This document shows positions 7,420 through 26,800 of a stretch of 32,000 nucleotides of DNA, piece after piece. Position 1 is the first letter of the stretch. Every line of letters begins with the position of its first letter. A model generated the notes under the pieces. The model had not been told where the DNA came from and did not search any database. It saw nothing but the letters and a program-made list of their open reading frames with translations. Source of the stretch: an uncultured Verrucomicrobia subdivision 3 bacterium (lineage in GTDB: Bacteria; Verrucomicrobiota; Verrucomicrobiia; Limisphaerales; UBA11358); assembly GCA_903936645.1 (NCBI GenBank), contig CAIZWI010000257.1, positions 1 through 32,000 of the forward strand, read 5' to 3'. The translations under genes and the position numbers were made by a program.

Positions 7420-7423
7420 AATG

Positions 7424-10260: not shown

Positions 10261-10496
10261 GGCGGCCAGCCGCCGGAACAGGCGATAATAGAAACAAGGT
10301 TTGATGGGTCAGGAATAAGTCGTTTGGGGGGAAGGAACAAGTTTTTTTGGCAACGCCAGGCAGCGCGGCAAGACCGGGAGCAGGCACATTTCCGGATATC
10401 AGCACCCTTTAGCGGCGCATGGGGGGCGCAAATTCTAAAAATAATTCCGCTTTAGAGACTAGCGGGGGAACGGGCTCCGTTCTATTTTTTGGGCTC

Positions 10497-12431
10497 ATGA
10501 AATCACTTTTTGCCCTGGCTTGCGCCCTGATGGGTGCGATGCAGGTGGAGCTTTGGGCCGGTGATTCGCCATTAGCCGGAACGGTTCCACAAATAACCGA
10601 TGACCGGTCCGATGTATCCATCCTCAGGGACCGGGCAAAGCAAGTGGTCAAGGGCATCGGCTTTGAAATTCAAGCGGATGCCATCGGCTCAGGAAATCAG
10701 GGCCTGCAAAACGAACCGCTGGGTGTGCCGCATGATTTGGCGCCAGCCGAACGGCAGCGGCTGGCGGCGGAAATGCTGCATGGTTTCCGTTATTGCCGGC
10801 TGGCGGGCGGGCTGTACTGGCGCGGACTTGACGCCGATAAAAAGCACCTGCAACCGCGCTGGCCGGAACAGTTGGAGGAACTGCAGGCATTGCTGGAGGC
10901 GGCCGGGGTGGAGGGTTTGTCCTTCGAGTATTGGTCCCCGGCGCCCTATTGGAAAGGCGCGCAGGCTTTCGTGGGCGGGCGGGAAGGAGACCCCCAAAAC
11001 CGGCTTCGCTGCTTCGCGCCCGGCTTTGCGGAGGACGGGGTTTTTCATGGGGATACCAACCGTTTTCTGGCCGAGTTTGCGCAGGCGGTGGTCACGGACA
11101 TCCAAACGTTGAACCAGGCCGGACTGAAAGTTTCGCTGTTCGGCCTCCAAAACGAACCCGAGGTGAACCATGCCATTTATTCCTCGTGTGAGTACCCGGG
11201 CGGGGCCGCTTATGTTCAAGCGTTTACCGCCGTGGCGGGCGCGGTGCGCCGCCACGACCCGAACATTTTAATTTTTGCCGACACCTTCAACTCGTTTCCA
11301 AAACTCATTGCGGCGGGAACGAGAGATCCACGCGTGGCGGCGCTGCTGGATGCGTATGCGGTTCACATCGTCGGCACGAGCTCGGAGAAACCGCGCCAGG
11401 TCGCGGCGGAGATTTCCCAGAAGCTCCCGCCGCGCCCGTGGTTCCAGAACGAATACGAATATCTCACTGGCGCGGCAACGCCCGAGCGCTGCCTGAACAC
11501 GGTGCAGCACATCATGAATTCGTTCCAGCTGGCCGGCTGTCCGACGTGGTTTTGGATCCACGCGCTGAAACCGATTCAAAACGCCGAGGCCAGTGGCTAC
11601 TCGCTCGGTTTCTGGAGGTCGCGGCTGGCGCCGCAGCTTCCGCCCTCCGCCGAACAATACCGCCGGTGGCCGGGCGGGCCGGAGTTTTCGCTGCTGCCGG
11701 AACCGCTGAAGAAAATGGAGATGCTTTCGGTCAAACGCGGCAAGGCCGGCCACGGCATCGCGTGGAATTTTCTGGTGAACCAGCCGGTGAAAGTCTGGTT
11801 GCTGGCCGCGAACGGTGGCGAAGCCAGCCTCGACGCATCCTGGGAGCGGACAGAGCTAAGGACCCGGTGGGAGGGCGGGGGGGACCGGATTTTCACGCGA
11901 ACCTTTCCCAAGGGAAAGGTAGAAATCCCCGCGCCCGGCAGTCCCACGGTCGCCCACAGTGTTTTCGTGGAGCCAGCGGATGCGGCGGGGTTCAAAGTGG
12001 AGATCGGCATGAATCTGCCGATTGAAATTCGTTCGCAGGCGCGGGCGCTCGAACGCCAGGCCGCGGCGTTGGCGCCGGGTCATTGGATTTTCAACCCGTA
12101 CAACTGGAACGCGGTCGGGAGTTTCGTGAAGCGGATGCCGTGGGACAGCGTGGTGGTGGACATCGCCGAGAAACCTTACAATGCAGACGCGCGGGTGCTG
12201 GCCTTCCGGAAGCCGGACGGCAAGCTGACCATCGTGGTATCCAACCGCACGCCGGGCGAACACACCTTTGACATCAACACTGGCCGGCGCGACGCCGTGT
12301 TTCAAGGGGTTCGCTACACGCCAGAGGAGGCGGGAGCGAACACCCAGGGCAAGGCCAGGGGCACGGTGAGCGGGGAAAACATCACGCTGCGCCTGCCGCC
12401 CTGCGCCTGGGAATTTTGGGAGGAACAATAA
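10497..12431 (+). CDS. clan GH-A glycoside hydrolase, GH30-like
   Basis: ATG 10497 gives the signal peptide MKSLFALACALMGAMQ. Motifs YWSPAPYWKG, SLFGLQNEPEV (acid/base NEP) and WFQNEYEYL (candidate nucleophile) resemble GH30 glucosylceramidase/galactanase signatures. The family assignment is tentative. Confidence 0.55.
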   Translation: MKSLFALACALMGAMQVELWAGDSPLAGTVPQITDDRSDVSILRDRAKQVVKGIGFEIQADAIGSGNQGLQNEPLGVPHDLAPAERQRLAAEMLHGFRYCRLAGGLYWRGLDADKKHLQPRWPEQLEELQALLEAAGVEGLSFEYWSPAPYWKGAQAFVGGREGDPQNRLRCFAPGFAEDGVFHGDTNRFLAEFAQAVVTDIQTLNQAGLKVSLFGLQNEPEVNHAIYSSCEYPGGAAYVQAFTAVAGAVRRHDPNILIFADTFNSFPKLIAAGTRDPRVAALLDAYAVHIVGTSSEKPRQVAAEISQKLPPRPWFQNEYEYLTGAATPERCLNTVQHIMNSFQLAGCPTWFWIHALKPIQNAEASGYSLGFWRSRLAPQLPPSAEQYRRWPGGPEFSLLPEPLKKMEMLSVKRGKAGHGIAWNFLVNQPVKVWLLAANGGEASLDASWERTELRTRWEGGGDRIFTRTFPKGKVEIPAPGSPTVAHSVFVEPADAAGFKVEIGMNLPIEIRSQARALERQAAALAPGHWIFNPYNWNAVGSFVKRMPWDSVVVDIAEKPYNADARVLAFRKPDGKLTIVVSNRTPGEHTFDINTGRRDAVFQGVRYTPEEAGANTQGKARGTVSGENITLRLPPCAWEFWEEQ

Positions 12432-12435
12432 CTCC

Positions 12436-12528
12436 ATGGCCCGCAAAGTCCCTTATCTTCGCTGGATTCTGGCCCTGGCGCTGTTCATGGCGGCGTTTTT
12501 GAACTACGTGGACCGGAACGTGCTGGGC
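12436..12528 (+). pseudogene. 5' remnant (~31 codons) of an MFS transporter gene (hexuronate/sugar-acid transporter-like N-terminus)
   Basis: MARKVPYLRWILALALFMAAFLNYVDRNVLG starts 5 nt after the GH30-like stop. It matches the RW.IL.L.F....NY.DR..L pattern of MFS TM1. Beyond codon ~31 the frame runs antisense into the convergent DHDPS-family gene and loses all MFS character. Confidence 0.4.
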
Positions 12529-13421
12529 CGGGTGGCGAGGGCGGTTTGCAGGGTGGCGAGGGCGGCTTTGCGCTCGGCACCGGCCATGATGAGGCGCGGG
12601 GGGCGGACGCGTTCGTGGCCCATGCCGGTTTCCTGCTGCACGAGTTTGATGAGCTGCACAAACTTGGGCACGGTGTCCATGCGGAGCAAGGGCAGGAACC
12701 AGCGGTAGAGTTCCTCCGCTTGCTTTACCTTGCCCTGCGCGGCGTACTGGTAGAGGGCGACGGATTCGCGGGGGAAGGCGTTGACGAGGCCGGCGATCCA
12801 GCCGGTGGCCCCGGCGCGGATACCCTCGACGATGGCGTCGTCCACGCCCACGAGCAAGGCGAGGCGGTCGGCAATGAGGGCGCGGAGGGCGGTGACGCGG
12901 CGGACGTCGGTGCTGGATTCCTTGACGGCGGCGAGGTTGTCGTTTTCGGCGGCGAGCTCGGCGATTTGGGCCGGAAGATAATCGGTTTTGTAAGAGACGG
13001 GGTTGTTATACAACATGCACGAGAGGTTCGTGGCGCGGATGACGGCGGTGACGTGGGCTTTCATCTCGCGCCAGTCGCTGGTATACACATAGGGCGGCAG
13101 GACCATGAGGCCGGAGCAGCCGGCGGCGGCGGCGGCGCGGGCCAGGGCGACGGCCTCGGCGGTGGCCAGGGAGGCGATGCCGGCGACGACGGGACGGCCA
13201 TCCAGCGCGGCGACGAGGGTTTTGAGAATGGCGACTTTTTCCTCGAAGGCGAGGGTGGCGCTTTCGCCGAGGGAGCCCAGGGCGACGACGCCGTTACAGC
13301 CATTCTCCACGAGCCAGCGGCCGTGCTGGGCGACGAAGGCGTGGTCCACGGTGTAGTCGGCGTTGAAGGCGGTGGTCATGGCCGGGATGACGCCGGTCCA
13401 TTGCATGGGTTTGGTTTTCAT
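12504..13421 (-). CDS. DHDPS/DapA-family lyase, probable 1-pyrroline-4-hydroxy-2-carboxylate deaminase (LhpC/HypD-like)
   Basis: MKTKPMQWTGVIPAMTTAF..., GSLGESATL, and the Schiff-base lysine context NLAAVKESS. It is the last gene of the epimerase / D-amino-acid dehydrogenase operon. Start options are ATG 13421 or ATG 13406. Confidence 0.75.
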   Translation of the reverse strand: MKTKPMQWTGVIPAMTTAFNADYTVDHAFVAQHGRWLVENGCNGVVALGSLGESATLAFEEKVAILKTLVAALDGRPVVAGIASLATAEAVALARAAAAAGCSGLMVLPPYVYTSDWREMKAHVTAVIRATNLSCMLYNNPVSYKTDYLPAQIAELAAENDNLAAVKESSTDVRRVTALRALIADRLALLVGVDDAIVEGIRAGATGWIAGLVNAFPRESVALYQYAAQGKVKQAEELYRWFLPLLRMDTVPKFVQLIKLVQQETGMGHERVRPPRLIMAGAERKAALATLQTALATRPSTFRST

Positions 13422-13449
13422 GGATTTCAAAGGTTTTAGTAAAGGGAAT

Positions 13450-14709
13450 TCAGGCGTAACGGTCGGGAGAAAGCAGGGTCAAGTCAAGGGCGGGGCGTTC
13501 GCCGGCCAGGATTTGGGCGACGAGCCGGCCGGTGATGGGGGCGAGGCTGATGCCCATCATGGCATGGCCGGTGGCCAGGGTGAGGTTGGCCAGCCGGGCG
13601 GTGCGGCCGAGATAGGGCAGGCCATCGGGGGAACAGGGCCGGAGGCCGCGCCAGGGGGCGATGCCGGCAAAATCGGCGGGCGTGAAATCGGGGTAATAAC
13701 CGTTGACGGCATTGATAATGCCCTGCACGCGCCGGGGCTGGATTTGTTCGTTCAGCCCGGAAATTTCCATGGTGCCGCCAAAGCGCAGGGTGCCGCCCAG
13801 GGGGGTGACGGCCATGCGCGCCTCGGTGAAAATGGCGCAGATTTGGGGCAACTGGCGCGGTTGCGGCAGGGTCAGGCTGTAGCCTTTGCCGGCCTGGATG
13901 GGGATGCGCAAGCCCAGGTCGCGGGCGAGTCCCGGGGACCAGGAACCGCCGCAGAGGACGTATTCATCGGCAATCAATTCCCGGCCATCGGCGAGGCGCA
14001 CGTTTTGCAGGCGGCGGTCGGGTCCGGTGGTGCAGGCGGTGACTTCGGTGTCCCAATAAAACCGGGCACCGGCGGCGAGGACTTTGGTTTGCAGGGCGGC
14101 CAGCAAACGGTCGGGCTGGAGGTGGCAATCCTTGGGAAAATAAACGGCGCCGGCGACGGACATGCGCACACCGGGATCGAGGGCGGCGGTTTGCCGGGCG
14201 TCCAGAACCTCGGCGGGAATGCCGAGGGCCACAGCCTGGGCGGCGGTTTGGGCTTCTTCATCGAGTCCATGCTGGGTTCGGCAGAGCATGAGGAGGCCCT
14301 TTTTCACGAGGCCAAAGTCGTTATGGGGGAGGGCGGCGAGTTCCTCATAGGCGAGGCGGCTGGCGAGGTTTAAATCGCGGAGCAGCGGCGCGGCGCGGCG
14401 CACGTGGGCGGGGGTGGCGGCGCGCCAGAATTTATACAACCAGTCGAACAACTCGAAGGAGAGGCGGGGCTTGATGTAAAAGGGGGACTCGGGATTCCAC
14501 ATCCATTTGAGGCCCAAGGCGACCATGCCGGGGGCGGCGAGCGGGATGAAATGGCTGGGCACGATCATGCCGGCATTGCCCAGGGAACAGCCATCGCGCT
14601 GGGCGGAGCGGCGCTCGACGACGGTGACATCCCAGCCGCGCTGGGTGCAGTAATAGGCGGTGGACAGGCCGATGACGCCGCCGCCGATGATGAGGATGCG
14701 GCGGCTCAT
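13450..14709 (-). CDS. FAD-dependent oxidoreductase, D-amino-acid (D-hydroxyproline) dehydrogenase-like (DadA/LhpB-like)
   Basis: ATG 14709 gives MSRRILIIGGGVIGLSTAYY (GxGxxG followed by VVER). The DAO-family C-terminal block is LATGHAMMGISLAPITG. Confidence 0.85.
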   Translation of the reverse strand: MSRRILIIGGGVIGLSTAYYCTQRGWDVTVVERRSAQRDGCSLGNAGMIVPSHFIPLAAPGMVALGLKWMWNPESPFYIKPRLSFELFDWLYKFWRAATPAHVRRAAPLLRDLNLASRLAYEELAALPHNDFGLVKKGLLMLCRTQHGLDEEAQTAAQAVALGIPAEVLDARQTAALDPGVRMSVAGAVYFPKDCHLQPDRLLAALQTKVLAAGARFYWDTEVTACTTGPDRRLQNVRLADGRELIADEYVLCGGSWSPGLARDLGLRIPIQAGKGYSLTLPQPRQLPQICAIFTEARMAVTPLGGTLRFGGTMEISGLNEQIQPRRVQGIINAVNGYYPDFTPADFAGIAPWRGLRPCSPDGLPYLGRTARLANLTLATGHAMMGISLAPITGRLVAQILAGERPALDLTLLSPDRYA

Positions 14710-14730
14710 GGGTGCATTTGCGGAAACATC

Positions 14731-14790
14731 CAAACTCCAACCTCCAACCTCCAAAGAAGCACCAAGCTCCAATAATGAACATTAAAAGCC
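14731..14790 (+). repeat. CAA-rich dispersed repeat, copy A
   Basis: CAAACTCCAACCTCCAACCTCCAAAGAAGCACCAAGCTCCAATAATGAACATTAAAAGCC. It contains CTCCAAC x3 in tandem. The 3' part, CAAGCTCCAATAAT.AA, matches copy B at 16820-16837. Confidence 0.6.
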
Positions 14791-14969
14791 GGGTGATCCG
14801 GGGTTGATAGGTAATTCCAATTCACAACTATTCAATGGCTTACAATTTCAGTTTCTTAGGGCGGGACGCCCGCCAGGACGCTACGGCGGGATCGGCCGGG
14901 CCAGCACATCGGTGGTTTGGGGAAATTACGTTGCGGAATGGATTTCCTCGATTGGTTAACATAAACACC

Positions 14970-15908
14970 TCAACGAATGCCCCAGCAAAAGGGGTCGGTT
15001 TCATCCAGCAGCAGGGTGGCCTCGGAATTGACGAAGGCGCTGCCGGTGATGACCGGGATGATCTGGCCGGCGGCGCGATCGTGCCATTGATAAGTGCCGG
15101 CGAAGGTGCTGCCGAGAATGCTTTCCTGAATCCAGGTCGCGCCGGCGGCGAGTTTGCCATCGGCGGCGAGGCAGGCGAGCTTGGCACTGGTGCCGGTGCC
15201 ACAGGGGGAGCGGTCGTAGGCTTTGCCGGGGCACTGGACAAAATTGGAGGAATGGGCGCCGGGGGACACGGGCGGCCCGAAGAGTTCCACGTGGTCCACC
15301 TCGGGAAAGCCCTGGGCATTCACGGCCTGACGCACGCGCCAGCAATACTCGGTGAGGGCTTCGACATTGGCCAGGGCCAGGTTCTGGCCGTGCTGTTCCA
15401 CGAGGAAGAACCAATTGCCACCCCAGGCGACGTCGCCGGTGACGGGGCCGAGGCCCGGGACCTGGACGGTGACGGCCTGGTGGGCGCGCCAGGCGGGGAC
15501 GTTGGTGACGGAGACCTCGCCATTCGGATGCAAGGTGGCGGTGATGATGCCGACGGGGGTTTCGATTTTGTGCGTGCCCGGCGCGAGGCGGCCGGCATGA
15601 GCGAGGGTGACCATCAGACCGATGGTGCCGTGGCCGCACATGCCGAGCACACCGACATTGTTGAAAAAGATCACACCCGCGGCGCAGGACGGATCCTCCG
15701 GCTCGACAAGCAGGGCGCCGACGACCACATCGGAGCCGCGCGGTTCATTGACAATGGCGGAGCGGTAGTGATCGTAGTCGCGCTGAAACAGGGCGCGGCG
15801 GGCGGCGAGGGAGCCGCGACCGAGGTCGGGACCACCCTGCATGACGATGCGCGTGGGCTCGCCACCGGTATGCGAATCGATGACTTGAATCCGAATTAAT
15901 TTGCTCAT
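14970..15908 (-). CDS. 4-hydroxyproline 2-epimerase (proline racemase family, Cys/Cys type)
   Basis: ATG 15908 gives [22 protein letters not shown]. Both catalytic cysteines are present (GMCGHGTIG and [12 protein letters not shown]). It is adjacent to the D-amino-acid dehydrogenase and the DHDPS-family deaminase. Confidence 0.85.
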
Positions 15909-15982: not shown

Positions 15983-16025
15983 AGCCTCGACTATTATTTC
16001 GGCATAAGGTAGCAATTGATTGTGC

Positions 16026-16847
16026 ATGACCCGGCCGCGCGCTGACATTAAATTTTTCTCCCAACTGGCGGAGCCCTTTACGGGCGAGGCGTTGTTTGAC
16101 TGCCTGGCGGACACGGTATTTTTCATTAAAAATCAGCGGGGGGAATATGTGGTGGTGAACCAGACGCTGGTGGCGCGGTGCGGCCGCCGCAACAAACTCG
16201 AACTATTGGGGCGGCGCGCGGACCAAGTGTTTCCCGCGCCATTTGGCACGAGTTACCGGGCGCAGGACGAGCGGGTGCTGCGCGGTGGCGGGGTGATCCG
16301 CAACCAGTTGGAGTTGCACTTCTACACGACGGGCGGGCGGGGCTGGTGCCTGACCAACAAACTGCCACTGTATAATCACGCGGGGAAAGTGGCCGGGCTG
16401 GTGGGGATTTCCCGGGACTTGCAGGCGGTGAACGAGGGCAGCGAGGATTATTCCAGCATCGCCCGGGTGGTGGGTTACATGCAGACGCGGTTTGAGGAGC
16501 CGCTGCGGGTGCGGGACCTGGCGAAAACAGCGGGGCTCTCGCCCTTCCAATTGGAACAGCGGCTGCGCAAAATCTTTCAACTGACGGCGGGGCAGTTGAT
16601 CCAAAAAATCCGGATGGATCATGCGGTGGAGCGGCTGCTGAGCACGGACGAGGCGATTGCGGAAATTGGCCTGCGCTGCGGATACTCGGATCAAAGTGCC
16701 TTTACCCGGCAGTTTCGCAAGGCGAGCGGGCTGTCGCCGCTGGAATACCGGAGGACGTTTGCGGTGGAAGGAGAGAAGGCAAACTTCAAAATCCAAACTT
16801 CAAAATCCAGAGAATATTCAAGCTTCAATATTCAATCCTCATCATGA
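16026..16847 (+). CDS. PAS-domain AraC-family transcriptional regulator
   Basis: The N-terminal PAS-like sensor reads [30 protein letters not shown]...[11 protein letters not shown]...[26 protein letters not shown]. The C-terminal AraC HTH pair reads [25 protein letters not shown]...[33 protein letters not shown]. Confidence 0.85.
16780..16843 (+). repeat. CAA-rich dispersed repeat, copy B
   Basis: CAAACTTCAAAATC is perfectly duplicated in tandem (16780-16793 and 16794-16807). It is followed by ...TTCAAGCTTCAATATTCAATCC, which is homologous to copy A. The repeat encodes the low-complexity tail ([22 protein letters not shown]) of the AraC ORF. Confidence 0.6.
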
Positions 16848-19561
16848 AACATACCGAGATGGTGAAATTTCCAACGGCCGTTGGCCTTCCCCTCACCCCG
16901 GCTCTCTCCCTTGGGGATCCGCCGTCGCTAAAGCTATGGCGGACGGGAAAAGGGAATGTTTCGCCGTTAGCAGGCCAGGCGGCGAGGAAATTCGTCGGAC
17001 GGTTTTATGTGGTTATCTGGTTATGGGCGAGCCTCACAAACGTCCACGCGCAGGAGGGCGGGGGCAATGGGGCGCGGGGGATTTATCGGGACCGGATTGA
17101 GCCGCACTGGTTTACGCAAGGCACGGACACGAACAGTGGTTTCTGGTACCGGCTGAATTTCGCGGGGGACAAACGGGAGTTTGTGCGGGTGGATGCGGTG
17201 AAGGGCACGCGGGCGCCGGCGTTTGATCACGGACGGGTGGCGCGGGCGCTGACCGAGTTGTTGCACCATCCGGTTCAGGCCGATTACCTGCCGGTGGAAT
17301 CGCTGACGTTTGCCCCGGATGGCAGCTCCGTGGTGCTGCACGGGGCGGGCGAGGATTGGACGCTGGATTTAGCGCATTACATGGTGTCGGACCGAGCGGC
17401 GAACCACGATGACGGGGCAGTGCTTACCCCGCTGGAGCAGGTGCATCCCTCGGCGGCGGAAGGCGAGGATACGACCATTATGCTGGTGAATCACCGGAAG
17501 GAGGCGGTCCGGGTGTATTGGGTAAACCCAGAGGGGGAGCAGATTGAATATGGGCGGCTGGAGGCGGGGGAGCGCCGGGAGCAGCACACGTTTACCGGGC
17601 ATGTCTGGCTGATCACAAGCCTGGCGGGGCGGCACTTGGGGGTGTTTGAGGCGGGGGCGAAAGCAAGCCTGGCGGTGGTGGAACCCCGCATGAGCGGCCC
17701 AGCCGCAGCGGTGCGACCCGCCCGCCGGCCGGCGGCGCCGGATTTTCGTTCGCCGGATGGCCGGTGGGATGCGGTGGTGCATCAGCACGATTTGTTTCTC
17801 CGGGAAGTGGCCACGGGCAAGGAATGGCCGCTGACCACAGGCGCGACGGAAACGAACAGTTATGCGCGGAACGAGGAATTTGCGCGCAGCATTGACATGG
17901 ATTATGAGCATGCGGATCCCACGGAGGCAACGGCGGAGGTTTATTGGTCGCCCGATTCGACCAAGGTGGTGGCGATGTGCCGGAAGCCGGGAACCAAGCG
18001 CCGGGTGTATTTAATCGAGTCCTCGCCGGAGGACCAGTTGCAACCCAAGCTGGCGTCGTACCCGTATCTCAAGCCCGGCGATGACGTGCCCATCCGCAAG
18101 CCGCATTTGTTTGACGTGATGACCCGGCAGGAAATTCCGGTGGCGGACACGCTCTTTCCCAATCCCTGGTCCACGGACGACCTGCGGTGGAGCGCGGACA
18201 GCCGCCGGTTCACCTTTGTGTACAATCAACGCGGGCATCAGGTACTGCGGATTCTGGGGGTGGAGGCCGCGACGGGAACGGTGAAGGCCATCGTGGATGA
18301 GCACAGTCCGACGTTTATTTGTTATTCCTCCAAATATTTGGCGGAATACCTGGAGGACACGGACGAGATCATCTGGATGTCGGAGCGCGATGGCTGGAAT
18401 CATTTGTATTTGTATGATGCCCAGAGCGGGCTGGTGAAAAACCAGATTACGAAGGGGGAATGGGTGGTGCGCAAGGTGGTGCAGGTGGATCGGGAACAGC
18501 GGCAGCTCTGGTTTGAGGCAGGCGGCATCCGGCCGGGTCAGGATCCGTATTATCTGCATTTGTGCCGGGTGAATTTTGATGGCACCGGCCTGGTGGTGCT
18601 GACCGAGGGTGACGGCACGCACACCGAGGCATTTTCGCCGGACCGGCGCTGGTTCATTGACACGTGGTCGCGGGTGGATTGTCCGCCGGTGAATGAATTG
18701 CGCCGGAGTTCTGATGGTCATTTGATGTGCGACCTGGAACGTGCCGACGTGCGGGAGTGGCAGGCGGCCGGGGGCCAGTTTCCGGAGCGCTTTGTGGCCA
18801 AGGGGCGGGACGGGGTGACGGATATTTACGGGGTGATCTGGCGGCCGAAGGCGTTCCACTGGTTCAGCAAATACCCGGTGATCGAGGATATTTACGCGGG
18901 GCCGCAGGATGCCTTTGTGCCCAAGAATTTCCACGCGCATTACAACGCCCAGCGGCTGGCCAACCGGGGGTTTGTGGTGGTGCAAATGGATGGCCAGGGG
19001 ACTTCCAACCGGTCGAAGAAGTTTCATGATTACTGCTGGCAAAACCTGGCAGACGCGGGGTTTCCTGACCGGATGGCGTGGATTCGCGCGGCGGCGGCGC
19101 GTTATCGGGCGCTGGATTTGTCGCGCGTGGGGCTGTACGGTACGTCGGCGGGCGGGCAGGATGCGCTGCGGGGTCTGCTGGACCACGGGGACTTTTACCG
19201 GGCGGGGGTGGCGGATTCCGGCTGCCATGACAACCGCATGGACAAGATTTGGTGGAACGAGCAATGGCTGGGCTGGCCGGTGGGCGACGCTTATGTGCAC
19301 AGTTCCAACGTGGTGGATGCGCCCAAGCTCCAGGGCGCCCTGCTGCTCATGTATGGGGAAATGGATCGCAACGTGGATCCTGCGAGCACGCTGCAGGTGG
19401 TGAATGCGCTGATCAAGGCCGGTAAAAATTTTGAACTGCTGGCGGTGCCGGGCGCGGGCCATGGGATTGCCGGCCTCCCGTATGGGCAGTTGCGGATAGA
19501 GGATTTTTTTGTGCGGCATTTTCTGGCGGGCGGCGGCACGAGCGCAGGTTTCGCGCACTAA
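16844..19561 (+). CDS. S9-family serine peptidase, dipeptidyl-peptidase IV-like (S9B), with an internal VHL-beta-like module
   Basis: The DPP-IV-type propeller region reads FRSPDGRW...YWSPDS...LRWSADSRRF...WMSERDGWNHLYLY. A possible double-Glu motif is YARNEEF. The catalytic Ser is in GLYGTSAGG, Asp in YGEMDRNV and His in GAGHGI. The start is uncertain: the signal-peptide-like RKFVGRFYVVIWLWASLTNVHAQE begins at residue ~48 counted from ATG 16844, and an alternative GTG lies at 17009. Confidence 0.85.
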   Translation: MKHTEMVKFPTAVGLPLTPALSLGDPPSLKLWRTGKGNVSPLAGQAARKFVGRFYVVIWLWASLTNVHAQEGGGNGARGIYRDRIEPHWFTQGTDTNSGFWYRLNFAGDKREFVRVDAVKGTRAPAFDHGRVARALTELLHHPVQADYLPVESLTFAPDGSSVVLHGAGEDWTLDLAHYMVSDRAANHDDGAVLTPLEQVHPSAAEGEDTTIMLVNHRKEAVRVYWVNPEGEQIEYGRLEAGERREQHTFTGHVWLITSLAGRHLGVFEAGAKASLAVVEPRMSGPAAAVRPARRPAAPDFRSPDGRWDAVVHQHDLFLREVATGKEWPLTTGATETNSYARNEEFARSIDMDYEHADPTEATAEVYWSPDSTKVVAMCRKPGTKRRVYLIESSPEDQLQPKLASYPYLKPGDDVPIRKPHLFDVMTRQEIPVADTLFPNPWSTDDLRWSADSRRFTFVYNQRGHQVLRILGVEAATGTVKAIVDEHSPTFICYSSKYLAEYLEDTDEIIWMSERDGWNHLYLYDAQSGLVKNQITKGEWVVRKVVQVDREQRQLWFEAGGIRPGQDPYYLHLCRVNFDGTGLVVLTEGDGTHTEAFSPDRRWFIDTWSRVDCPPVNELRRSSDGHLMCDLERADVREWQAAGGQFPERFVAKGRDGVTDIYGVIWRPKAFHWFSKYPVIEDIYAGPQDAFVPKNFHAHYNAQRLANRGFVVVQMDGQGTSNRSKKFHDYCWQNLADAGFPDRMAWIRAAAARYRALDLSRVGLYGTSAGGQDALRGLLDHGDFYRAGVADSGCHDNRMDKIWWNEQWLGWPVGDAYVHSSNVVDAPKLQGALLLMYGEMDRNVDPASTLQVVNALIKAGKNFELLAVPGAGHGIAGLPYGQLRIEDFFVRHFLAGGGTSAGFAH
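16871..16955 (+). other. structured segment: a perfect 14-nt palindrome plus an extended imperfect hairpin
   Basis: CCAACGGCCGTTGG lies at 16871-16884. The hairpin is TCCCTT(16907-12)..TCCGCC(16918-23)..loop..GGCGGA(16938-43)..AAGGGA(16950-55). It lies between the AraC stop and the peptidase signal-peptide-like segment. Confidence 0.45.
17456..17683 (+). other. VHL beta-domain-like module (residues ~205-280 of the peptidase)
   Basis: MLVNHRKEAVRVYWVNPEGEQIEYGRLEAGERREQHTFTGHVWLITS aligns without gaps to human pVHL 75-121, [47 protein letters not shown] (15/47 identical). The human sequence was recalled from memory. Confidence 0.6.
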
Positions 19562-19573
19562 GGCATAAGAATT

Positions 19574-21349
19574 ATGAAGTTCATCAGCATTTGCGGGATG
19601 TTTATCGCGCTGGCGTTGCCGGCGGGGGCGGGCACTCCAGCCGCGGCCGAGGGGAATAAGCTGACCGCGTATTTCCAGACGTATCTGGACGAAAACTTGC
19701 GCCAGCATCCGACGGATGCCTCGGGGCTGGGGGACCACCGCTTCGACGCGGCGCTGGAAGACATTTCCCCGGCGGCGCGGGCGGGCTGGGTGACTCTGGC
19801 AAAGCAAACGCTGGCGGAGCTGCCAAAACGGGTGGCTTACCAGGCGCTGTCGCGGGATGGCCAGATCGATTACGAAATTTTCCAGCACCAATTGCAAACG
19901 GAGCTGTGGCTGGCGAAAAACAGCCATCCCTTTGAGGAAGACCCGCGCACTTACGGCAGCTATTTGAATGACAGTGTTTATGGGTTGCTGACGCAATCGA
20001 CGCTGCCGCGGGAAACGAATGTGGCCCATTGCCTGGCCCGCATGGCGCAGTTTCCCCGGATTATTGCCACGGCCAAGGCCACCTTAACGCATCCGCCGCT
20101 GCCGATCTTGGAGACCGCCATACGGCAGAACCAGGGGGCGATCGGGTTTTACGAGGGGGATTTGTTTCAACTGGCGGGCGACACGGCGCAATTGGCCGGG
20201 TTAAAAGCGGCGGCGGCCGAGGTGGTCAGGGAGCTCAAGGATTACCAGGCGTTTCTCGAAGGGCCGCTGCGCGCCCGGGCCAATGGCGAATGGCGGCTGG
20301 GCCCGAAGAAATTCAAGGCGAAGCTGGACCTGGTGCTGGAGGCGGGGGAAAGTGCGGACGAAGTCCTGGCGGATGCGCGGGCGGAATTTGACCGGGTGCA
20401 ACGCGATCTCTACGTGGTTTCGCGGCAATTATGGAGCCAGTATTATCCGGCGGTGAATTTTCCGCCGGACGATGCGGCCGGCCGCCGGGAAACGATTACC
20501 CGGGTCATCCAGGCCGTGGACCAGGAACACGGCCAGCCGGAGGAATTGATCAACGAAGCGCGCGCCACGGTGACGGACATCAAACAATTCATTCACGCTC
20601 ATCATTACCTGAACCTGCCGGAGCCGGATCACTGCCAGGTGATAGAAATGCCGGAATTTCGCCGGGGCAACTCGCTGGCGTACCTGGCCCCCGCCCCGCC
20701 GCTCGACCCGGCGGCCGACAGTTTTTATGCGGTGAGTCCGCCGCCGGCCGACTGGACCCCGGCGCAAAAGACCAGTTTCCTGGAGGAATACAACCGGCAC
20801 ATGCTGAAGATCCTGACGATTCACGAGGCGTACCCGGGGCATTACGTGCAGCTCAACCGGGCGAATCAAAATCCCTCGCTGATCCGGCGCGTTTACCAAT
20901 CGGGTCCGTTCGTGGAGGGCTGGGCGGTTTACGGGGAGATCACGATGTTGAACGAGGGGTTTGGGCAGGGCGATTTGCGTCTGCGCCTGATGCAGCTCAA
21001 GTTCTACCTGCGCGCGGTGGCCAATGCGATACTGGATCACCAAATGCACTGCACGGAGCTGACGGATGCGGAGGCGATGCAATTTTTGGTGCGGGAGGCT
21101 TATCAATCCGAGGGCGAGGCCAAGTTGAAAGTGATTCGCGCCAAGCAAAGTTCGACCCAGTTAAGCACCTATTTTGTGGGGCGCATGGCGCATTACCGTT
21201 TGCACCAGCAAATGGAGCGCGAACTCGGGGCGCAATTTGATCTCAGCAAATACCACGAAGCGGTGCTCGCCAGTGGTTCGGTGCCCGTAAAATACCTGCC
21301 GGAACTCGTGCACCGCCGGCTTAACCCAAACCCCCAAACAACCCCATGA
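19574..21349 (+). CDS. DUF885-family protein (putative zinc metallopeptidase)
   Basis: The signal peptide is MKFISICGMFIALALPAGAG. The family-typical motif HEAYPGHY lies at about 20822-20845, followed by EGWAVYGE. The gene starts 12 nt after the peptidase stop. Confidence 0.8.
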   Translation: MKFISICGMFIALALPAGAGTPAAAEGNKLTAYFQTYLDENLRQHPTDASGLGDHRFDAALEDISPAARAGWVTLAKQTLAELPKRVAYQALSRDGQIDYEIFQHQLQTELWLAKNSHPFEEDPRTYGSYLNDSVYGLLTQSTLPRETNVAHCLARMAQFPRIIATAKATLTHPPLPILETAIRQNQGAIGFYEGDLFQLAGDTAQLAGLKAAAAEVVRELKDYQAFLEGPLRARANGEWRLGPKKFKAKLDLVLEAGESADEVLADARAEFDRVQRDLYVVSRQLWSQYYPAVNFPPDDAAGRRETITRVIQAVDQEHGQPEELINEARATVTDIKQFIHAHHYLNLPEPDHCQVIEMPEFRRGNSLAYLAPAPPLDPAADSFYAVSPPPADWTPAQKTSFLEEYNRHMLKILTIHEAYPGHYVQLNRANQNPSLIRRVYQSGPFVEGWAVYGEITMLNEGFGQGDLRLRLMQLKFYLRAVANAILDHQMHCTELTDAEAMQFLVREAYQSEGEAKLKVIRAKQSSTQLSTYFVGRMAHYRLHQQMERELGAQFDLSKYHEAVLASGSVPVKYLPELVHRRLNPNPQTTP

Positions 21350-22830
21350 CCACCGCTCCTGCCACCCCCGCCATCCCCGCCAAAGCCCATCCCCGCGGGC
21401 TCGCCACGCTGTTCTTCACCGAGATGTGGGAGCGGTTTAGTTATTACGGCATGCGCGCGCTGCTGGTGCTGTTCATGGTGGATGGCGCCCACGGCGGGCT
21501 GGGCATGACGGACCAAACGGCGACGGCGGTTTACGGCATTTACACGGCGTGCGTGTACCTCATGGCCCTGCCCGGCGGCTGGCTGGCGGACCGGATTTTG
21601 GGGGCGCAACGGGCCGTGTGGTACGGGGGGATTATTATTGCGCTGGGGCATTTCACGCTGGCCCTGCCCTTTCACTCCTCGTTTTATGTCGGGCTGATTC
21701 TGGTGGTGGTGGGGAGCGGCATCCTCAAGCCGAACATGACCTCCATGGTGGCGGATTTGTATCCCGAAGGCGGGTCGCGCCGGGACGCGGGGTTCACGAT
21801 TTTTTACATGGGCGTGAATTTGGGAGCGACCGTTGGACCGTTGATTTGCAGTTATCTGGGCGAGCATGTGAACTGGCACTATGGGTTTGGCGCGGCGGGT
21901 GTGGGGATGGTGTTGGGGCTGATCCAATTTCGGCTGACGCGGCAGGCGCTGGGCACGGCGGGCACGCGGCGGGGCAATGACCGGCCGTTGAATGCGGTGG
22001 AACGCTGGGGCATGATCGGCCTGGTGGCGGGGGTGGTCACCTTGCTGGGGTTGTGCCTGGGAGGCGTCGTGAGCGTGGATCCGGCTAGCATTGCCCATGC
22101 CATGACGAAGGTGATTGTGGGCATCGCCGCGCTGTTCTTCATATCGGTGTTCGTATTTGGCGGACTCAGCAGCGTGGAGAAACAACGCATGGGGGTGATT
22201 GTGGTGTTGTTTATCGCCTCGGCCATGTTCTGGGCAGGATTCGAACAGGCGGGCTCGTCCTTCAACCTCTTTGCGGAACGGTACACCGACCGGCAGCTCT
22301 CGTGGGTGCATTTTACCATTCCGGCGGGCTGGTTTCAGACATTGAACCCCATCTTTATTATTACCTTCGCGCCGTTCATGGCGTGGCTCTGGGTGCGGCT
22401 GGCCGTGCGGAATCTGGACCCGTCGATCCCGGTGAAATTTGCGTTTGGCTTGCTGCTGCTGGCGGGGGGTTTTCTGGTGATGACGGGCGCGGCCAAGGTG
22501 GTGGCGGCCGGGCACCTGGCCCTGCCCGGCTGGTTGCTGGCGACGTATTTCATTCACACGTTTGCGGAATTGTGCCTGAGCCCGGTGGGCTTAAGCTCGG
22601 TCACCAAGTTATCCCCGCGCAAATATGTGGGCCAGATGGTGGGCATCTGGTTTCTGGCGACATCCTTGGGAAATCTGATTGCCGGTCTGCTGGCGGGCGG
22701 GTTCAGCGCGGATCATTTGGAAGCGTGGCCGGGGCTCTACTTCAACATCGCCCTGATGCCGGCCATAGCCGGGGTGCTGCTGCTGGTGTGCGCCCGGCCG
22801 GTGAAAAAATGGATGGAAGGCGTGGTCTGA
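21346..22830 (+). CDS. POT/PTR2-family proton-dependent di/tripeptide transporter
   Basis: The PTR2 signature is present: LATLFFTEMWERFSYYGMRALLVLFM...GGWLADRILG...GHFTLAL. The ORF is a 494-aa polytopic protein. Its start overlaps the DUF885 stop (ATGA). Confidence 0.9.
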   Translation: MTTAPATPAIPAKAHPRGLATLFFTEMWERFSYYGMRALLVLFMVDGAHGGLGMTDQTATAVYGIYTACVYLMALPGGWLADRILGAQRAVWYGGIIIALGHFTLALPFHSSFYVGLILVVVGSGILKPNMTSMVADLYPEGGSRRDAGFTIFYMGVNLGATVGPLICSYLGEHVNWHYGFGAAGVGMVLGLIQFRLTRQALGTAGTRRGNDRPLNAVERWGMIGLVAGVVTLLGLCLGGVVSVDPASIAHAMTKVIVGIAALFFISVFVFGGLSSVEKQRMGVIVVLFIASAMFWAGFEQAGSSFNLFAERYTDRQLSWVHFTIPAGWFQTLNPIFIITFAPFMAWLWVRLAVRNLDPSIPVKFAFGLLLLAGGFLVMTGAAKVVAAGHLALPGWLLATYFIHTFAELCLSPVGLSSVTKLSPRKYVGQMVGIWFLATSLGNLIAGLLAGGFSADHLEAWPGLYFNIALMPAIAGVLLLVCARPVKKWMEGVV

Positions 22831-22939: not shown

Positions 22940-23737
22940 TCAAGGGGCCTTGTTGTTGTCATCCATGCCCATGTTCCAAACGTCCAGGAAACGGGTGATC
23001 TTCACCCACTCCACGTGGCCGTCACAGAAATTCATGCACGTGCCTGAGGATCCATGATTATTATCGGGATCCGGCCAGTTGTTGTGCAAGCTGCCGCCAA
23101 CGGAGGCGGTGTCATCGCCATCGGCCATGAGGAGAATGCGGGAAGGACCGGGCCGGGTGCCAGGCTGATACAACACGTTCGCGTAGCCGGTCAGGGAGTG
23201 CTCGGTTTTTTTCTCGCCGGTGCCGCTAAAGACCCCAAATATTTCATAGCTGGTGCCATAATTTTTGGTGTTTACCGCGTTGTTAGCCAAATCGACCACA
23301 ACGCGCTCGGTGGCGGATTGGGGCTTTAAGGCGGTGGTGGGCCGAATGGAATTCTCAGTCGCAGGGCAGCAATAACAACCGAAATTTCTGATGTAATTGG
23401 GATACAACCAGTTCGCATCGTCATCCCCCCCGGAGCGATCGCTTTTGGGGGTGGGAACGAAGGTGGGGGGGTTCCAGGTGGCCCCGCTCAAATTTCCATT
23501 ATTGTCATCGGCATAGAGGACGCTTCCCAAATCCAGTTGTTTGAGGTTGCTGAGACACCCGGTTTTTTTGGCGGCGGCTTTGGCCCGGGCCAGGGCGGGA
23601 AGCAGCATGGCGGCCAAAATGGCGATAATGGCGATCACCACCAGCAATTCAATGAGCGTAAAAGCCCGGTTTCGCGGGGACAATGACGTGGGCCGATGAC
23701 GGATTAGGATTGGGTTGTTGGGGGGCGGGGTGAACAT
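22940..23737 (-). CDS. prepilin-type N-terminal cleavage/methylation-domain protein with a C-terminal H-X9-DG-type motif (DUF1559-like pseudopilin)
   Basis: [30 protein letters not shown] is the type IV pilin-like leader and hydrophobic helix. The C-terminal motif reads [21 protein letters not shown]. The ATG at 23737 is preferred over the TTG at 23764. Confidence 0.85.
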
Positions 23738-23769
23738 AGTTGTTGGAGGAGGGCTGCGTAACAAGCAGG

Positions 23770-23813: not shown

Positions 23814-26800
23814 TTAATTCAGGTAAACCACGCGATAGAAGACAGCATCTGCCGAGAGGCTGCTGTCGGTATAACTGGCGGTGCCATCTTCGGCCACCGC
23901 AGCGGTGCCAATGGTGGTCCAGACACCCGTCAGGGAGGAGGCACGCTGGATGGTGTAGGTTTTAGCCGGGGAGCCGGTAAACCGGATGACCGTCTGGCCA
24001 CCCGCGAGCACCAGCGGTTGCAGCACCGCGGCAGCCACCGGCGGAAACGAGTAGTAAATGCGCAGTTGCGGGCGTTCACGGGGAATGGCGGCTTCCGCGG
24101 TGTTGAAGCCCCAGCCATCCGAACCATTCAACCAGGGAATGACCACCCAGCCGTAATTGGTTTGGGAGCCATTGATCCAGGCGCGCACATCGGCGGTGAC
24201 GTTGTAGGAATTGAAACCGGACTGGACGAGGGCGGCGAAATCCGGGGTTCCGGCCTGAACATGGGACACGGTCGAGGCCTTGATCCCGTCAGGCTGGATG
24301 CCATTGTTAAAGAAATTCCAAGTGGCATTGGTATCAGTCCACGGCACGAGCATGGTGTAGAACAAACCACCATCGCCCATGGAGTTGGCCGTGACGCTGG
24401 CCAGGTCGAGGATGGCGGCATCCACCTGGGCGCCGGGCGGGACTTGGTTGGTGGTTCCACCCACCAGATTATCAAAGCGGAGGAGAACCTGCTCGGTATC
24501 GCCATTGGTCAGGCTGAGGTAATCCACAAAGACAGGGTTGGCCTGCGAGGCATCCAGATCGGGAGAGCTGGGTTGAATTTTGGTGTCATAGGCATTGGTA
24601 TAGCCATTGACTCCCTGACGGAAACTGACGCCAGCCTCACCCGGCGGCAGCCAGAGCACGTGCAGCCGCGGGCGGTTGGCTTTAACGGAGGCCTCAGCGG
24701 GGTAAAAACCAGTGCCATCCGTGTTAAACGGCCAGCCGCTCATCACCCAGCCATAATTGGCGATACCACTGGCCCAATCCTGCACATCGACGGTAACGCC
24801 CACGTTAATGGTGCCCAATCCGGTGGTGCCGGTGCCAATTTGGTTGCCGATTTGAGAATCGTAGGTGGAGCTGGCCTGGTTGTCATCCTTGAGGATGCCC
24901 CCGCCCACGTTATACCAGGTGGCATTCGTGGAGTCCCAGCTGGTCAACATACGGTTAAGCGTGCCGCCCTGGCCGGGGTTGAGCATGGTCAGCATTAGCT
25001 GGGCGGAAACAATGACCGAGCCCGGCGGAATTTGATTGGAATTGGTGCCGATAATATCGTCAAAACGCATCAAGACCTGGCTTTCGTTGGCAACGCCACC
25101 ATCCGGCCAATCAATCAACAAACCATCCGACGCGGTGCCACTGGGCTGAGCCTGGCCGGGATTCGCCTGGGCCAGGGAAATGTCACGCTCGGAATTATAC
25201 ACGCCGTAGCCGTAATCGAGGCCATCCTGGAACTGGATGTCGCGCAGCAGGCCAATGCGGATCACCTTGCTGGCACTGCTAACACCGCCCAGACCGTTGT
25301 AGAGGGCCACGGTGGCGGTGCGGCTTACGGGGGCAACATTGCCCACCGCGGTTTGGAACGTCACATTTTGGACCAGGGCCTGCACGGCCGCCGGGGTGGC
25401 CAGGTTGTTCAGTAGAACAATCAAGGGCGATTTATTGGCTCCGCCGGACAACGTGCCGATGATATTTTTGCCGTAGGTCACGTTCGTGCCGGTGACTCCG
25501 ATTTGCCCGGTGCCGGTACCGGTGCTTTTAATCGCCAGCACATCCCCGGCGGTCGCATTTTGGGTTAAGGTTACGGTCAAAGCCCCTGCGGGGTAGCTGC
25601 CATTGGCGGAATCCGTGACCACGGCCTGGGCATCCAGGAATACGGCCGGGGAACCCAAGCCATAGATGCAATCGCCGGAGGGCAGGTTCAAGGCGGCCTC
25701 GTTATCAATGGTGGTGGCGGCGATCGTGGGCAGATAGAAACCATCGTAGACCGGGTCGGTGGAGGTCACCGTGGTGCTGATGACATAAGCCACGTCGCCA
25801 TCATTAATATAATTGTCCGGAGCCGTGACCTGAACCGTTTGCGGCACATTCCAGTTGGCGCTGTTAAAGGTCAGGATGGCGGGCGAAATGCTGCCTTTGG
25901 CGGGATTGCTGGAGGTGGTGTGCACGAGGACGTTGGCCACGGGACTGGAGCCCAACACCACGGTATAGGTGCCGGACTGGCCTTCCACCAGGGAAATGGA
26001 GGCACCGGCCGTAACGGTGATGCTAGCAACATCATTATCAAGGTTGACACAGGCGACGTTAGTCGCTTGGAGGCCATTGTAATGGAGGTCGGCACTCACT
26101 GCCGGGGCGGGGATGATGCTGTAGGCGACCGAGCCATCCACCACGAAATCGTCGACACCCGTGACGGTGACCACTTGGTTGCTGGCGTAGTTGGCCGGGG
26201 TAAAGGTGAGGGAGGCGGGCGAAGGCAGGCCTTCACCGGGCTTGCTGGAGGTCAGACCAATGGTGACCGGAGCGGAAGGTTTGGAATTCAAGTGGACCGC
26301 GAACGTGGCCGAGCCGCCCGCTTCGGTGGTGACCAGACCACTGCTCGGAGCCACGGCAATGCCGGCTTGATCGTTATCGGCATTGACCACGGCGACATCC
26401 GCCGGATCCAGGCCGCTATAGGCGGGATCATCACTGACGGCCGGGGCCAGAATAATGGTGTACGGTTGGGGACCATCGACCACATTGTCATCCACGCCCG
26501 TGACGGTGACGGTTTGCGGGACATTCCAATTGTTGGTGGTGAAGGTCAAGCTGGCCGGGGAGACCACACCTTCGCCGGGGTTGCTGGAGGCCAGGGCGAT
26601 GGTGACATCGGCCCCGGGCGGATAGTTCAAGGCCACCGTAAAGTGATCGGAAGTGCCATTTTCCGAGGTGTTCAAACCGTTGGTGGGCGAGACGTTGAAG
26701 CCGGGTTTCGGACCGGGAATGAAGACAAAGGAGGCCACCGGCTGAATTTGCGGGGGCGTCACCGAGGTATCCGTGGGGGTTTCCAAGGTGGGCAAGGCGG

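Follow-up and report, generated by a model that had tools for sequence, protein, structure and literature searches.

A pVHL-type beta domain with a conserved hydroxyproline-type pocket in a verrucomicrobial DPP-IV-like peptidase encoded near probable hydroxyproline catabolic genes

Animal oxygen sensing centres on the recognition of hydroxyproline (Hyp) by pVHL, and most proteolysis-targeting chimera (PROTAC) drugs use this same recognition as their anchor point. What would a pVHL-like module be doing inside a bacterial peptidase? This question is raised by positions 1-32,000 (forward strand) of contig CAIZWI010000257.1, assembly GCA_903936645.1, from an uncultured Verrucomicrobia subdivision 3 bacterium (GTDB lineage Verrucomicrobiota; Verrucomicrobiia; Limisphaerales; UBA11358). 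In this stretch of 32,000 nucleotides, hereafter the window, a first-pass annotation had proposed that a DPP-IV-type peptidase gene encodes a pVHL-like reader of Hyp. As far as computation can establish it, residues ~202-281 of the predicted peptidase are indeed homologous to the pVHL beta domain.

The flagged segment (17456-17683) encodes residues 205-280, AEGEDTTIMLVNHRKEAVRVYWVNPEGEQIEYGRLEAGERREQHTFTGHVWLITSLAGRHLGVFEAGAKASLAVVE. Residues 213-259 align without gaps to residues 75-121 of human pVHL with 15 identities in 47 positions, and the identical count in the first-pass annotation was reproduced by hand with pVHL residues taken from the HMMER alignment to Protein Data Bank (PDB) chains. 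The similarity was also said to continue into AG.H.G; it does (AGRHLG versus AGTHDG), but only if a one-residue gap is allowed. The Pfam VHL family (PF01847, gathering cut-off 21 bits) matched the whole protein with 24.7 bits and the isolated module, a 114-residue piece also used for phmmer, with 28.1 bits (E 2e-6), whereby the profile match proposed earlier lies above the curated cut-off. No further VHL-related Pfam family was found in the peptidase at E <= 10. Against 177,635 distinct PDB sequences, phmmer retrieved pVHL chains with the isolated module (E ~7e-5) and nothing else below 0.3. An alignment of 51 orthologous, non-redundant module sequences was used both as a profile, which hhalign matched to pVHL with a probability of 98.1% (E 7e-14, 59 columns), and as the basis of an AlphaFold2 model, which is a seven-strand sandwich with a predicted local distance difference test score (pLDDT) of 86.9 and a predicted template modelling score (pTM) of 0.76. 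The top 50 Foldseek matches of this model in the PDB were all pVHL (E ~7e-7, TM-score 0.70-0.77, root-mean-square deviation 1.3-3 A, 85-93 columns), and the predicted module thus superposes on the pVHL beta sandwich, as the first-pass annotation had anticipated.

The module is neither a one-off fusion nor a contaminant. When one genome per GTDB species was scanned, a relative of the peptidase turned up in at least 598 genomes, and the module is present in 71 of the best 80, which come from Verrucomicrobiota, Planctomycetota, Armatimonadota, Abditibacteriota, Poribacteria and Lentisphaerae. Closer to the window sequence, 114 of 120 database relatives (56-92% identical, mostly metagenome-assembled genomes (MAGs) of Verrucomicrobiota) contain the module, and nearly all 120 are already annotated with PF01847 in precomputed Pfam data. 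It is not a pVHL orthologue either. The alpha domain, BC-box and Cul2-box were not found, as the pVHL alignments span the beta domain only and the protein continues beyond residue ~282 with a disordered linker that leads to the propeller. Lacking an alpha domain, the module is not a VHL E3 receptor. A second VHL-like module was sought elsewhere in the window and none was found.

The peptidase gene and its parts are as follows.

16844-19561, + strand: putatively exported S9B DPP-IV/prolyl tripeptidyl peptidase-like serine peptidase with a VHL-type module; 905 residues; Pfam VHL 210-257, DPPIV_N 302-615, Peptidase_S9 699-892
16976-17056, + strand: hydrophobic helix, residues 45-71, RKFVGRFYVVIWLWASLTNVHA followed by QE, a helix in the model; probable signal peptide or N-terminal anchor
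17075-17413, + strand: N-terminal conserved region, residues ~78-190, beta strands with pLDDT ~90; probable first propeller blades
17447-17686, + strand: pVHL-beta-type seven-stranded sandwich module, residues ~202-281, delimited by homology, fold, conservation and presence/absence boundaries
17687-17743, + strand: flexible Arg/Pro/Ala-rich linker, residues ~282-300, from the module to the remaining propeller; low pLDDT, R/G/P-rich and poorly conserved columns
17747-18763, + strand: remaining DPP-IV-type beta-propeller, residues ~302-640; DPPIV_N 302-615, with the 5yp1/2ecf alignment beginning at about residue 300
18776-19528, + strand: alpha/beta-hydrolase catalytic domain (Peptidase_S9) with Ser768 (19145-19147, GTSAGG), Asp841 (19364-19366) and His873 (19460-19462)

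By architecture and catalytic triad the enzyme is a member of family S9B. DPPIV_N (PF00930, E 1.5e-42) and Peptidase_S9 (PF00326, E 7.8e-40) are both clear, and Ser768, Asp841 and His873 are invariant in 121 of 121 sequences. No NCBIfam equivalog fits the peptidase. The closest solved structures, by sequence and by fold, are the bacterial DPP-IV enzymes 2ecf and 5yp1 and the Porphyromonas gingivalis prolyl tripeptidyl peptidase (PgPTP) 2d5l, to which the full-length model (pLDDT 82.2) aligns in Foldseek with E ~1e-45 and target TM-scores of 0.64-0.69 over ~830-860 columns. Residues 1-49 of this model are disordered with low pLDDT; there follow the helix (45-71), a folded region (80-185), a linker, the VHL strands (209-279), a second linker, the propeller from residue 303 and the hydrolase up to about residue 895. 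Both linkers bracketing the module (186-191 and 284-297) are of low confidence, with pLDDT below 50 at 284-297.

The helix probably represents a signal peptide or an anchor, and the junction of VHA with the following Q resembles a signal-peptidase site. Ahead of it, residues 1-44 (16844-16975) form a low-complexity extension of low pLDDT, and the DNA at 16800-16900 seems richer in A and T than the remainder of the window. A relative with 92% identity shares the overlap of start and stop codons, although its N-terminus is 30 residues shorter. The start of the peptidase and the length of its n-region given here are tentative.

Where does the module sit? It had been placed between an N-terminal domain and the propeller. 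The position ahead of DPPIV_N stands, but the supposed N-terminal domain is probably made of the first blades of the DPP-IV propeller, as suggested by a blade-like motif and by Foldseek alignments that span whole DPP4. A profile search of the PDB with residues 78-200 returned weak propeller-blade-like repeats; W89, W101, Y102, F127 and D128 are invariant in the region, and residues 80-185 are retained by orthologues that lack the module. If these are the first blades, the module would be an insertion inside the propeller region and not a spacer between autonomous domains.

The Hyp pocket of pVHL is matched in full. W88 corresponds to W226 (17519-21), Y98 to Y236 (17549-51), S111 to T249 (17588-90, a Ser to Thr change), H115 to H253 (17600-02) and W117 to W255 (17606-08), and all five matches and codons given in the first-pass annotation were confirmed. 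Residues N78, R107, H110 and G114 of pVHL likewise have conserved counterparts in the module. In pVHL, S111 and H115 hydrogen-bond the 4-hydroxyl group and thereby discriminate Hyp from Pro.

The earlier reading had been tied to these positions being constant among close orthologues, and they are. Among the 114 close relatives with the module, W226, H253 and W255 are present in 114/114, position 249 is Thr in 113 and Ser in one, and Y236 is counted in 114, with three Phe in rows aligned around gaps. Just five columns of the 51-sequence alignment (N216, W226, Y236, H253 and W255) are invariant, and T249 is nearly so. Conservation extends across phyla: 73 module copies from the best 80 species genomes have the first Trp in 73, Tyr in 72, Thr or Ser in 73, His in 72 and the last Trp in 70 (Phe in the other three). 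The full W-Y-[ST]-H-W signature is found in 68 of 71 peptidase orthologues, compared to 213 of 373 domain copies in the wider superfamily (copies within the top 150 of 6,398 proteins retrieved at E <= 0.001 when 1.84 billion cluster representatives were searched exhaustively with a profile). The fold can therefore do without these residues. Their conservation pattern is the one expected from functional constraint on a ligand pocket, and points to such a constraint in the peptidase family.

Some orthologues do without the module. In the orthologous loci L043, L052, L053, L060, L066, L072 and L078, the 80-185 region is followed by a short R/G-rich linker that leads directly to the propeller start SPDGKW. 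Such clean boundaries of presence and absence make the module a discrete cassette. We also observed that the module-less subclade, comprising these loci and L055, is ~60% identical in the catalytic part and shows a clean deletion of ~90 residues. These orthologues are natural module-minus controls.

The genes around the peptidase suggest a link to peptide uptake and Hyp catabolism.

16020-16847, + strand: PAS + AraC-type transcriptional regulator; Pfam PAS_4, HTH_18 and HTH_AraC; upstream in 7-8 of 80 orthologous loci
19574-21349, + strand: DUF885 protein with signal peptide and HEAYPGH (HExxH-like) motif; Pfam DUF885 E 6e-94; closest structure PDB 3u24, 'putative lipoprotein'
21346-22830, + strand: POT/PTR2 proton-coupled di/tripeptide permease; Pfam PTR2; NCBIfam oligopeptide:H+ symporter 414.8 bits (cut-off 130)
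14970-15905, - strand: 4-hydroxyproline 2-epimerase of the proline racemase superfamily; Pfam Pro_racemase E 1.6e-99; start probably at MSKLIRIQ, as corrected here
13450-14772, - strand: FAD-dependent D-amino-acid (putatively D-hydroxyproline-type) dehydrogenase of the DAO family; Pfam DAO E 1.9e-68; NCBIfam D-amino acid dehydrogenase subfamily
12504-13430, - strand: DHDPS-family protein, candidate delta1-pyrroline-4-hydroxy-2-carboxylate (Pyr4H2C) deaminase by putative specific activity; Pfam DHDPS E 2.7e-55
6133-7455, - strand: Xaa-Pro aminopeptidase/prolidase-type M24 peptidase; Pfam AMP_N and Peptidase_M24; NCBIfam Xaa-Pro aminopeptidase

The TGA stop of the regulator overlaps the ATG of the peptidase (ATGA, in catcATGAaac around 16844), which points to translational coupling of the two. 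The PAS-AraC regulator, peptidase, DUF885 and POT genes form an apparent operon, divergent from the epimerase/DAO/DHDPS cluster. The DUF885 product is, from its motif, a putative secreted metallopeptidase, and its gene follows the peptidase gene in L001-L004, L006, L007, L041 and others. On the opposite strand, the epimerase shows both catalytic-type Cys motifs (MCGHG and SPCGTG), and its best NCBIfam model is 4-hydroxyproline epimerase (423.5 bits, versus 213 bits for proline racemase). Given a start at 15905, as seems probable, it begins ~0.9 kb upstream of the peptidase, in agreement with the ~1 kb reported earlier between the peptidase and a Hyp operon. We take the epimerase, DAO-family and DHDPS-family genes to encode steps one to three of the canonical trans-4-Hyp pathway of bacteria; the role of the DAO-family gene would follow from that pathway and from its position. 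A M24 Xaa-Pro aminopeptidase gene also lies beside orthologues in L003, L041 and L077.

Is this arrangement a peculiarity of one genome? The 80 best loci were compared with up to 10 kb of flank, by tblastn of the window proteins and, separately, by unsupervised clustering of all neighbouring open reading frames (ORFs). With tblastn, homologues of the epimerase, DAO and DHDPS genes were detected at 11, 10 and 11 loci. By clustering, these same three families were the top recurrent real neighbours (12, 11 and 10 loci), and further recurrent neighbours were DUF885 (8), PAS-AraC (7), POT (6) and glycoside hydrolase family 127 (GH127; 6). Generic sulfatase (8) and DUF1501 (7) genes, widespread in these phyla, also rank among the recurrent neighbours. 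As a rough baseline that ignores kinship, one to two epimerase genes per 5-Mb genome would give less than one by chance in ~1.2 Mb of flanks. The three families recur together at 10-12 loci. Loci with Hyp genes span Verrucomicrobiota, Armatimonadota, Planctomycetota (Humisphaera) and Abditibacteriales, and their gene orders differ. The 92%-identical relative (L001) has the same locus, and relatives at ~60% identity retain the order peptidase-DUF885-(amidase)-POT, with M24 aminopeptidase P, alpha-galactosidase, GH31, DUF5695 and GH127 genes as neighbours. GH127 enzymes are reported to cleave beta-L-arabinofuranose off the Hyp-linked arabinosides of plant Hyp-rich glycoproteins (PMC10850190, PMC7263609).

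Two orthologous loci deserve separate mention. In L081, a Prosthecobacter-like MAG (CALRWM010000061.1), the operon contains DHDPS, Hyp epimerase, VHL-DPP peptidase and DAO genes and also, at 13269-15011 (+), a gene for a secreted protein of 581 residues with two HExxH motifs and ATLF/M90-like metallopeptidase domains. The VHL-module profile matches this protein at its N-terminal residues 22-72, where the pocket is partly degenerate (W, N, T, H, F), making it a second, unrelated VHL-like peptidase at a Hyp locus. In L004 (CAZUBG010000018.1), labelled 'uncultured Bifidobacteriaceae', the complete Verrucomicrobia-type locus (Hyp genes together with the PAS-AraC, peptidase, DUF885 and POT genes) is present in a copy with 73% identity; the contig is probably mis-binned and does not represent an actinobacterial occurrence.

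Glycoside hydrolase genes are also found at the window locus. A weakly GH79-like gene (8887-10260, -) and a weakly GH30-C-like gene (10419-12431, +) adjoin the Hyp operon; both are missing from L001, which has a XylR-type regulator in their place. No NCBIfam equivalog was found for them or for the DUF885 gene. Taken with the GH127, GH31 and alpha-galactosidase genes that lie near orthologues, these two genes give a hint that the substrates are arabinogalactan-proteins or extensins of plants.

We consider it reasonably probable that the module is a tethered Hyp-peptide exosite on an S9B peptidase with functional ties to peptide import and Hyp catabolism, a proposal in which we infer Hyp binding, substrate, cleavage register, export and regulation. 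The ~80-residue pVHL-beta homologue would be inserted into the propeller region on two flexible linkers. The pocket would be walled by W226, Y236 and W255, the 4-hydroxyl of Hyp would make hydrogen bonds with T249 and H253, and R245 and H248 (R107 and H110 in pVHL) would pair with an extended peptide, as the pVHL strand does with HIF. The module would in this way capture Hyp-containing polypeptides, either collagen or gelatin fragments or deglycosylated plant or algal Hyp-rich glycoproteins, and keep the captured chain near the propeller opening, where the S9B active site could trim short X-Pro/X-Hyp peptides. Additional cleavage may come from the co-transcribed DUF885 protein, a putative metallopeptidase. 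The POT permease would import the resulting di- and tripeptides, and cytoplasmic Xaa-Pro peptidases, with the M24 enzyme (6133-7455) as a candidate, would free Hyp from the imported X-Pro/X-Hyp peptides. The epimerase, D-Hyp dehydrogenase and Pyr4H2C deaminase would then take Hyp towards alpha-ketoglutarate semialdehyde (KGSA), with the PAS-AraC regulator controlling the locus.

Several observations weigh against this proposal. About 85% of the orthologous loci have no Hyp gene within 10 kb. L043 lacks the module and nevertheless adjoins Hyp-catabolic genes; the linkage is hence tied to the peptidase family and not strictly to the module. The score of the epimerase, 423.5 bits, is slightly below the NCBIfam equivalog cut-off of 450, and no KGSA dehydrogenase was found among window ORFs of at least 220 residues; its gene may be located elsewhere in the genome. 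The double-Glu anchor of the enzyme, which in DPP-IV grips the free N-terminus of the substrate and defines dipeptidyl aminopeptidase activity, is in question as well. The DEE of 5yp1 and 2ecf falls opposite S349-I350-D351 in a HMMER alignment that is uncertain in this loop, and the family consensus there is A-I-E/N/D. Nearby lie E344-E345 (region 342-355, 17867-17908), of which E345 is partly conserved and might substitute. Classical dipeptidyl aminopeptidase activity may hence not apply to this family: with the double-Glu not conserved at the aligned position, release of dipeptides, of tripeptides as by PgPTP, or of other products are all possible. Finally, W117 of pVHL belongs to the aromatic core of the fold (PMC3688787), so the conservation of its counterpart W255 is partly structural.

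One possibility is a peptide exosite without specificity for Hyp, in which case the module might bind proline-rich or polyproline-II stretches, O-glycosylated Hyp or some other modified residue. The enzymes of this family are proline-directed, most orthologous loci have no Hyp genes nearby, and the GH127, GH31 and alpha-galactosidase neighbours would suit glycopeptide substrates equally well. Moreover, the equivalents of Y98 and H115 often vary in the superfamily, so such domains can serve other ligands. In the peptidase orthologues, however, the counterparts of S111 and H115 are kept (Thr or Ser in 73/73, His in 72/73), and no other neighbours recur as often as the Hyp-catabolic trio. On balance we think this alternative unlikely.

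A structural or oligomerisation insert without any ligand, whose pocket residues are kept for the stability of the sandwich, would account for the aromatic-core role of W117 and for N216, the equivalent of the structural N78, being the most invariant position everywhere. It would also fit the subclade that functions without the module. Such an insert is nonetheless quite improbable, as pocket positions vary freely in 43% of the superfamily copies that match the fold, while the five surface-pocket residues of pVHL are kept almost fully across phyla at 45-60% overall identity. The case of Y236 is instructive. Its equivalent in pVHL, Y98, touches Hyp directly, and the modelled structure of the Y98H mutant is virtually identical to the wild type (PMC3688787), yet Y236 is kept in 72 of 73 copies.

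The pVHL pocket accepts capped-Hyp ligands (4awj, 'capped Hydroxyproline', and VH032-type complexes are among the Foldseek matches), and the flexible linkers of the module would permit a lid-like motion. The module might thus bind free Hyp or small Hyp peptides, as products or inducers, and act as an allosteric or gating sensor with no tethering of substrate. We find this very improbable, since R245 and H248 are conserved, suggesting polypeptide binding, and our literature searches gave no earlier case of an S9B enzyme regulated in this way. A chance or convergent resemblance of an unrelated small beta sandwich, to which the modest identity (~22-32%) and the coverage of ~60 of ~90 beta-domain residues by the sequence alignment might appeal, is effectively refuted by the agreement of four independent methods (Pfam, phmmer, hhalign and Foldseek).

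How does a tethered Hyp-peptide exosite compare with known systems? The module shares with the human pVHL beta domain (1LM8, 4AJY) the seven-stranded sandwich (TM ~0.75) and the five matched pocket residues. It differs in having Thr where pVHL has S111, and in being embedded in a putatively exported hydrolase instead of acting as a cytosolic adaptor. Without the alpha domain, BC-box and Cul2 box of pVHL it cannot form a VCB-Cul2 ligase. The proposed ligand is different too: exogenous Hyp-rich protein serving as food, as opposed to a regulated hydroxylation mark. The Stenotrophomonas DPP-IV (2ECF), the Pseudoxanthomonas enzyme (5YP1) and PgPTP (2D5L) have the same propeller, hydrolase and Ser-Asp-His triad; unlike the window peptidase, their structures have no VHL-type insert. 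PgPTP is implicated in the breakdown of collagen-derived peptides. Linker-borne binding modules that raise the local substrate concentration are familiar from clostridial collagenases, with their collagen-binding domains, and from glycoside hydrolases, with their carbohydrate-binding modules. The logic proposed here is the same and the folds are unrelated. Those modules are terminal and bind a triple helix or a glycan, whereas this one is inserted in a propeller and would bind a single Hyp in an extended peptide.

The canonical trans-4-hydroxy-L-proline cluster encodes the HypE epimerase, D-Hyp dehydrogenase, Pyr4H2C deaminase and KGSA dehydrogenase. Here, too, epimerase, DAO-family and DHDPS-family genes stand in a row (12504-15905, -), and the difference lies in the KGSA dehydrogenase, for which the window search was negative. 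Genome neighbourhoods of the proline racemase superfamily have been treated before (PMC4113996). The Hyp regulator of Streptomyces coelicolor is reported to be a GntR-like protein, HypR (PMC6608401). The window locus has a PAS-AraC regulator instead, with the Hyp cluster coupled to a proposed extracellular peptide-harvesting operon.

The first-pass annotation knew of no characterised bacterial example of this domain. Bacterial VHL beta domains are in fact already in Pfam; the function of the prokaryotic domain was called unknown in work on the IHF-VHL protein of type X retrons (Mestre et al., 2020; PMC7736814). An in-silico paper also describes a VHL beta domain in a hypothetical protein of Litorilituus (PMC9002001). 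Both proteins contain the same domain family as the module, and those papers either state that the function is unknown or speculate about it; neither ties the domain to Hyp binding, a peptidase or Hyp catabolism, whereas pocket conservation and genomic context suggest such a role here. Our search found no published link of a prokaryotic VHL domain to hydroxyproline, peptidases or Hyp catabolism, many papers in subscription journals being outside its reach. The novelty is thus in the functional context, that is, pocket conservation together with a Hyp locus, and not in the occurrence of the domain in bacteria.

Other parts of the window are less directly concerned with the peptidase. A Beta_elim_lyase (threonine-aldolase-like) ORF at 6885-8507 (-), with its domain at residues 18-303 of 539, overlaps the start of the M24 gene by ~570 nt in another frame. 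This could reflect a frameshift, an assembly error or an unusually long C-terminal tail without a domain. The ORF of 2,041 residues at 23814-29939 (-) had no Pfam match; its counterpart in L001 is a gene of 2,027 residues. Adjoining it is a gene (22940-23764, -) whose small product bears a prepilin-type N-terminal methylation motif.

Beyond the peptidases, the superfamily search returned VHL-beta domains in other architectures: DPP-IV fusions with two copies, Big_1/invasin proteins with a type IX secretion system (T9SS) tail, DM9 with ankyrin, inhibitor-I36-like proteins and TPR proteins. The neighbourhood of one bacterial VHL protein that is not a peptidase (P0170) was uninformative. The strongest matches to the bacterial module profile (P0121-P0139) are tandem VHL-beta-like arrays, with up to 12 copies in proteins of ~2,000 residues. 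The named ones are fungal hypothetical proteins, with 3-8 copies, most of which keep the W-Y-T-H-W signature: KAJ3107088.1 (P0126) and KAJ3110984.1 (P0128) from the chytrid Phlyctochytrium bullatum, and KAG6867745.1 (P0134) from Termitomyces. Such tandem-array proteins might resemble adhesins or might bind Hyp-rich walls.

It is possible, and we suggest it tentatively, that the VHL beta sandwich is an ancient and widespread extracellular binder of Hyp peptides in bacteria and fungi that was later recruited to an E3 ligase as metazoan pVHL. The sandwich would be attached to peptidases, adhesin-like Ig-repeat proteins and long tandem arrays, scavenging or binding collagen or the Hyp-rich glycoproteins of plants or algae. 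If this is true, the peptidase family would be the first case in which the ancestral function can be tested directly. A confirmed Hyp-peptide exosite would give some members of a large domain family (6,398 cluster representatives) a function and shed light on the origin of the metazoan Hyp reader, and small secreted bacterial Hyp-binding domains would become usable as reagents. It would also explain how Verrucomicrobiota and Planctomycetota, which are abundant in soil and water, harvest collagen or plant Hyp-rich glycoproteins.

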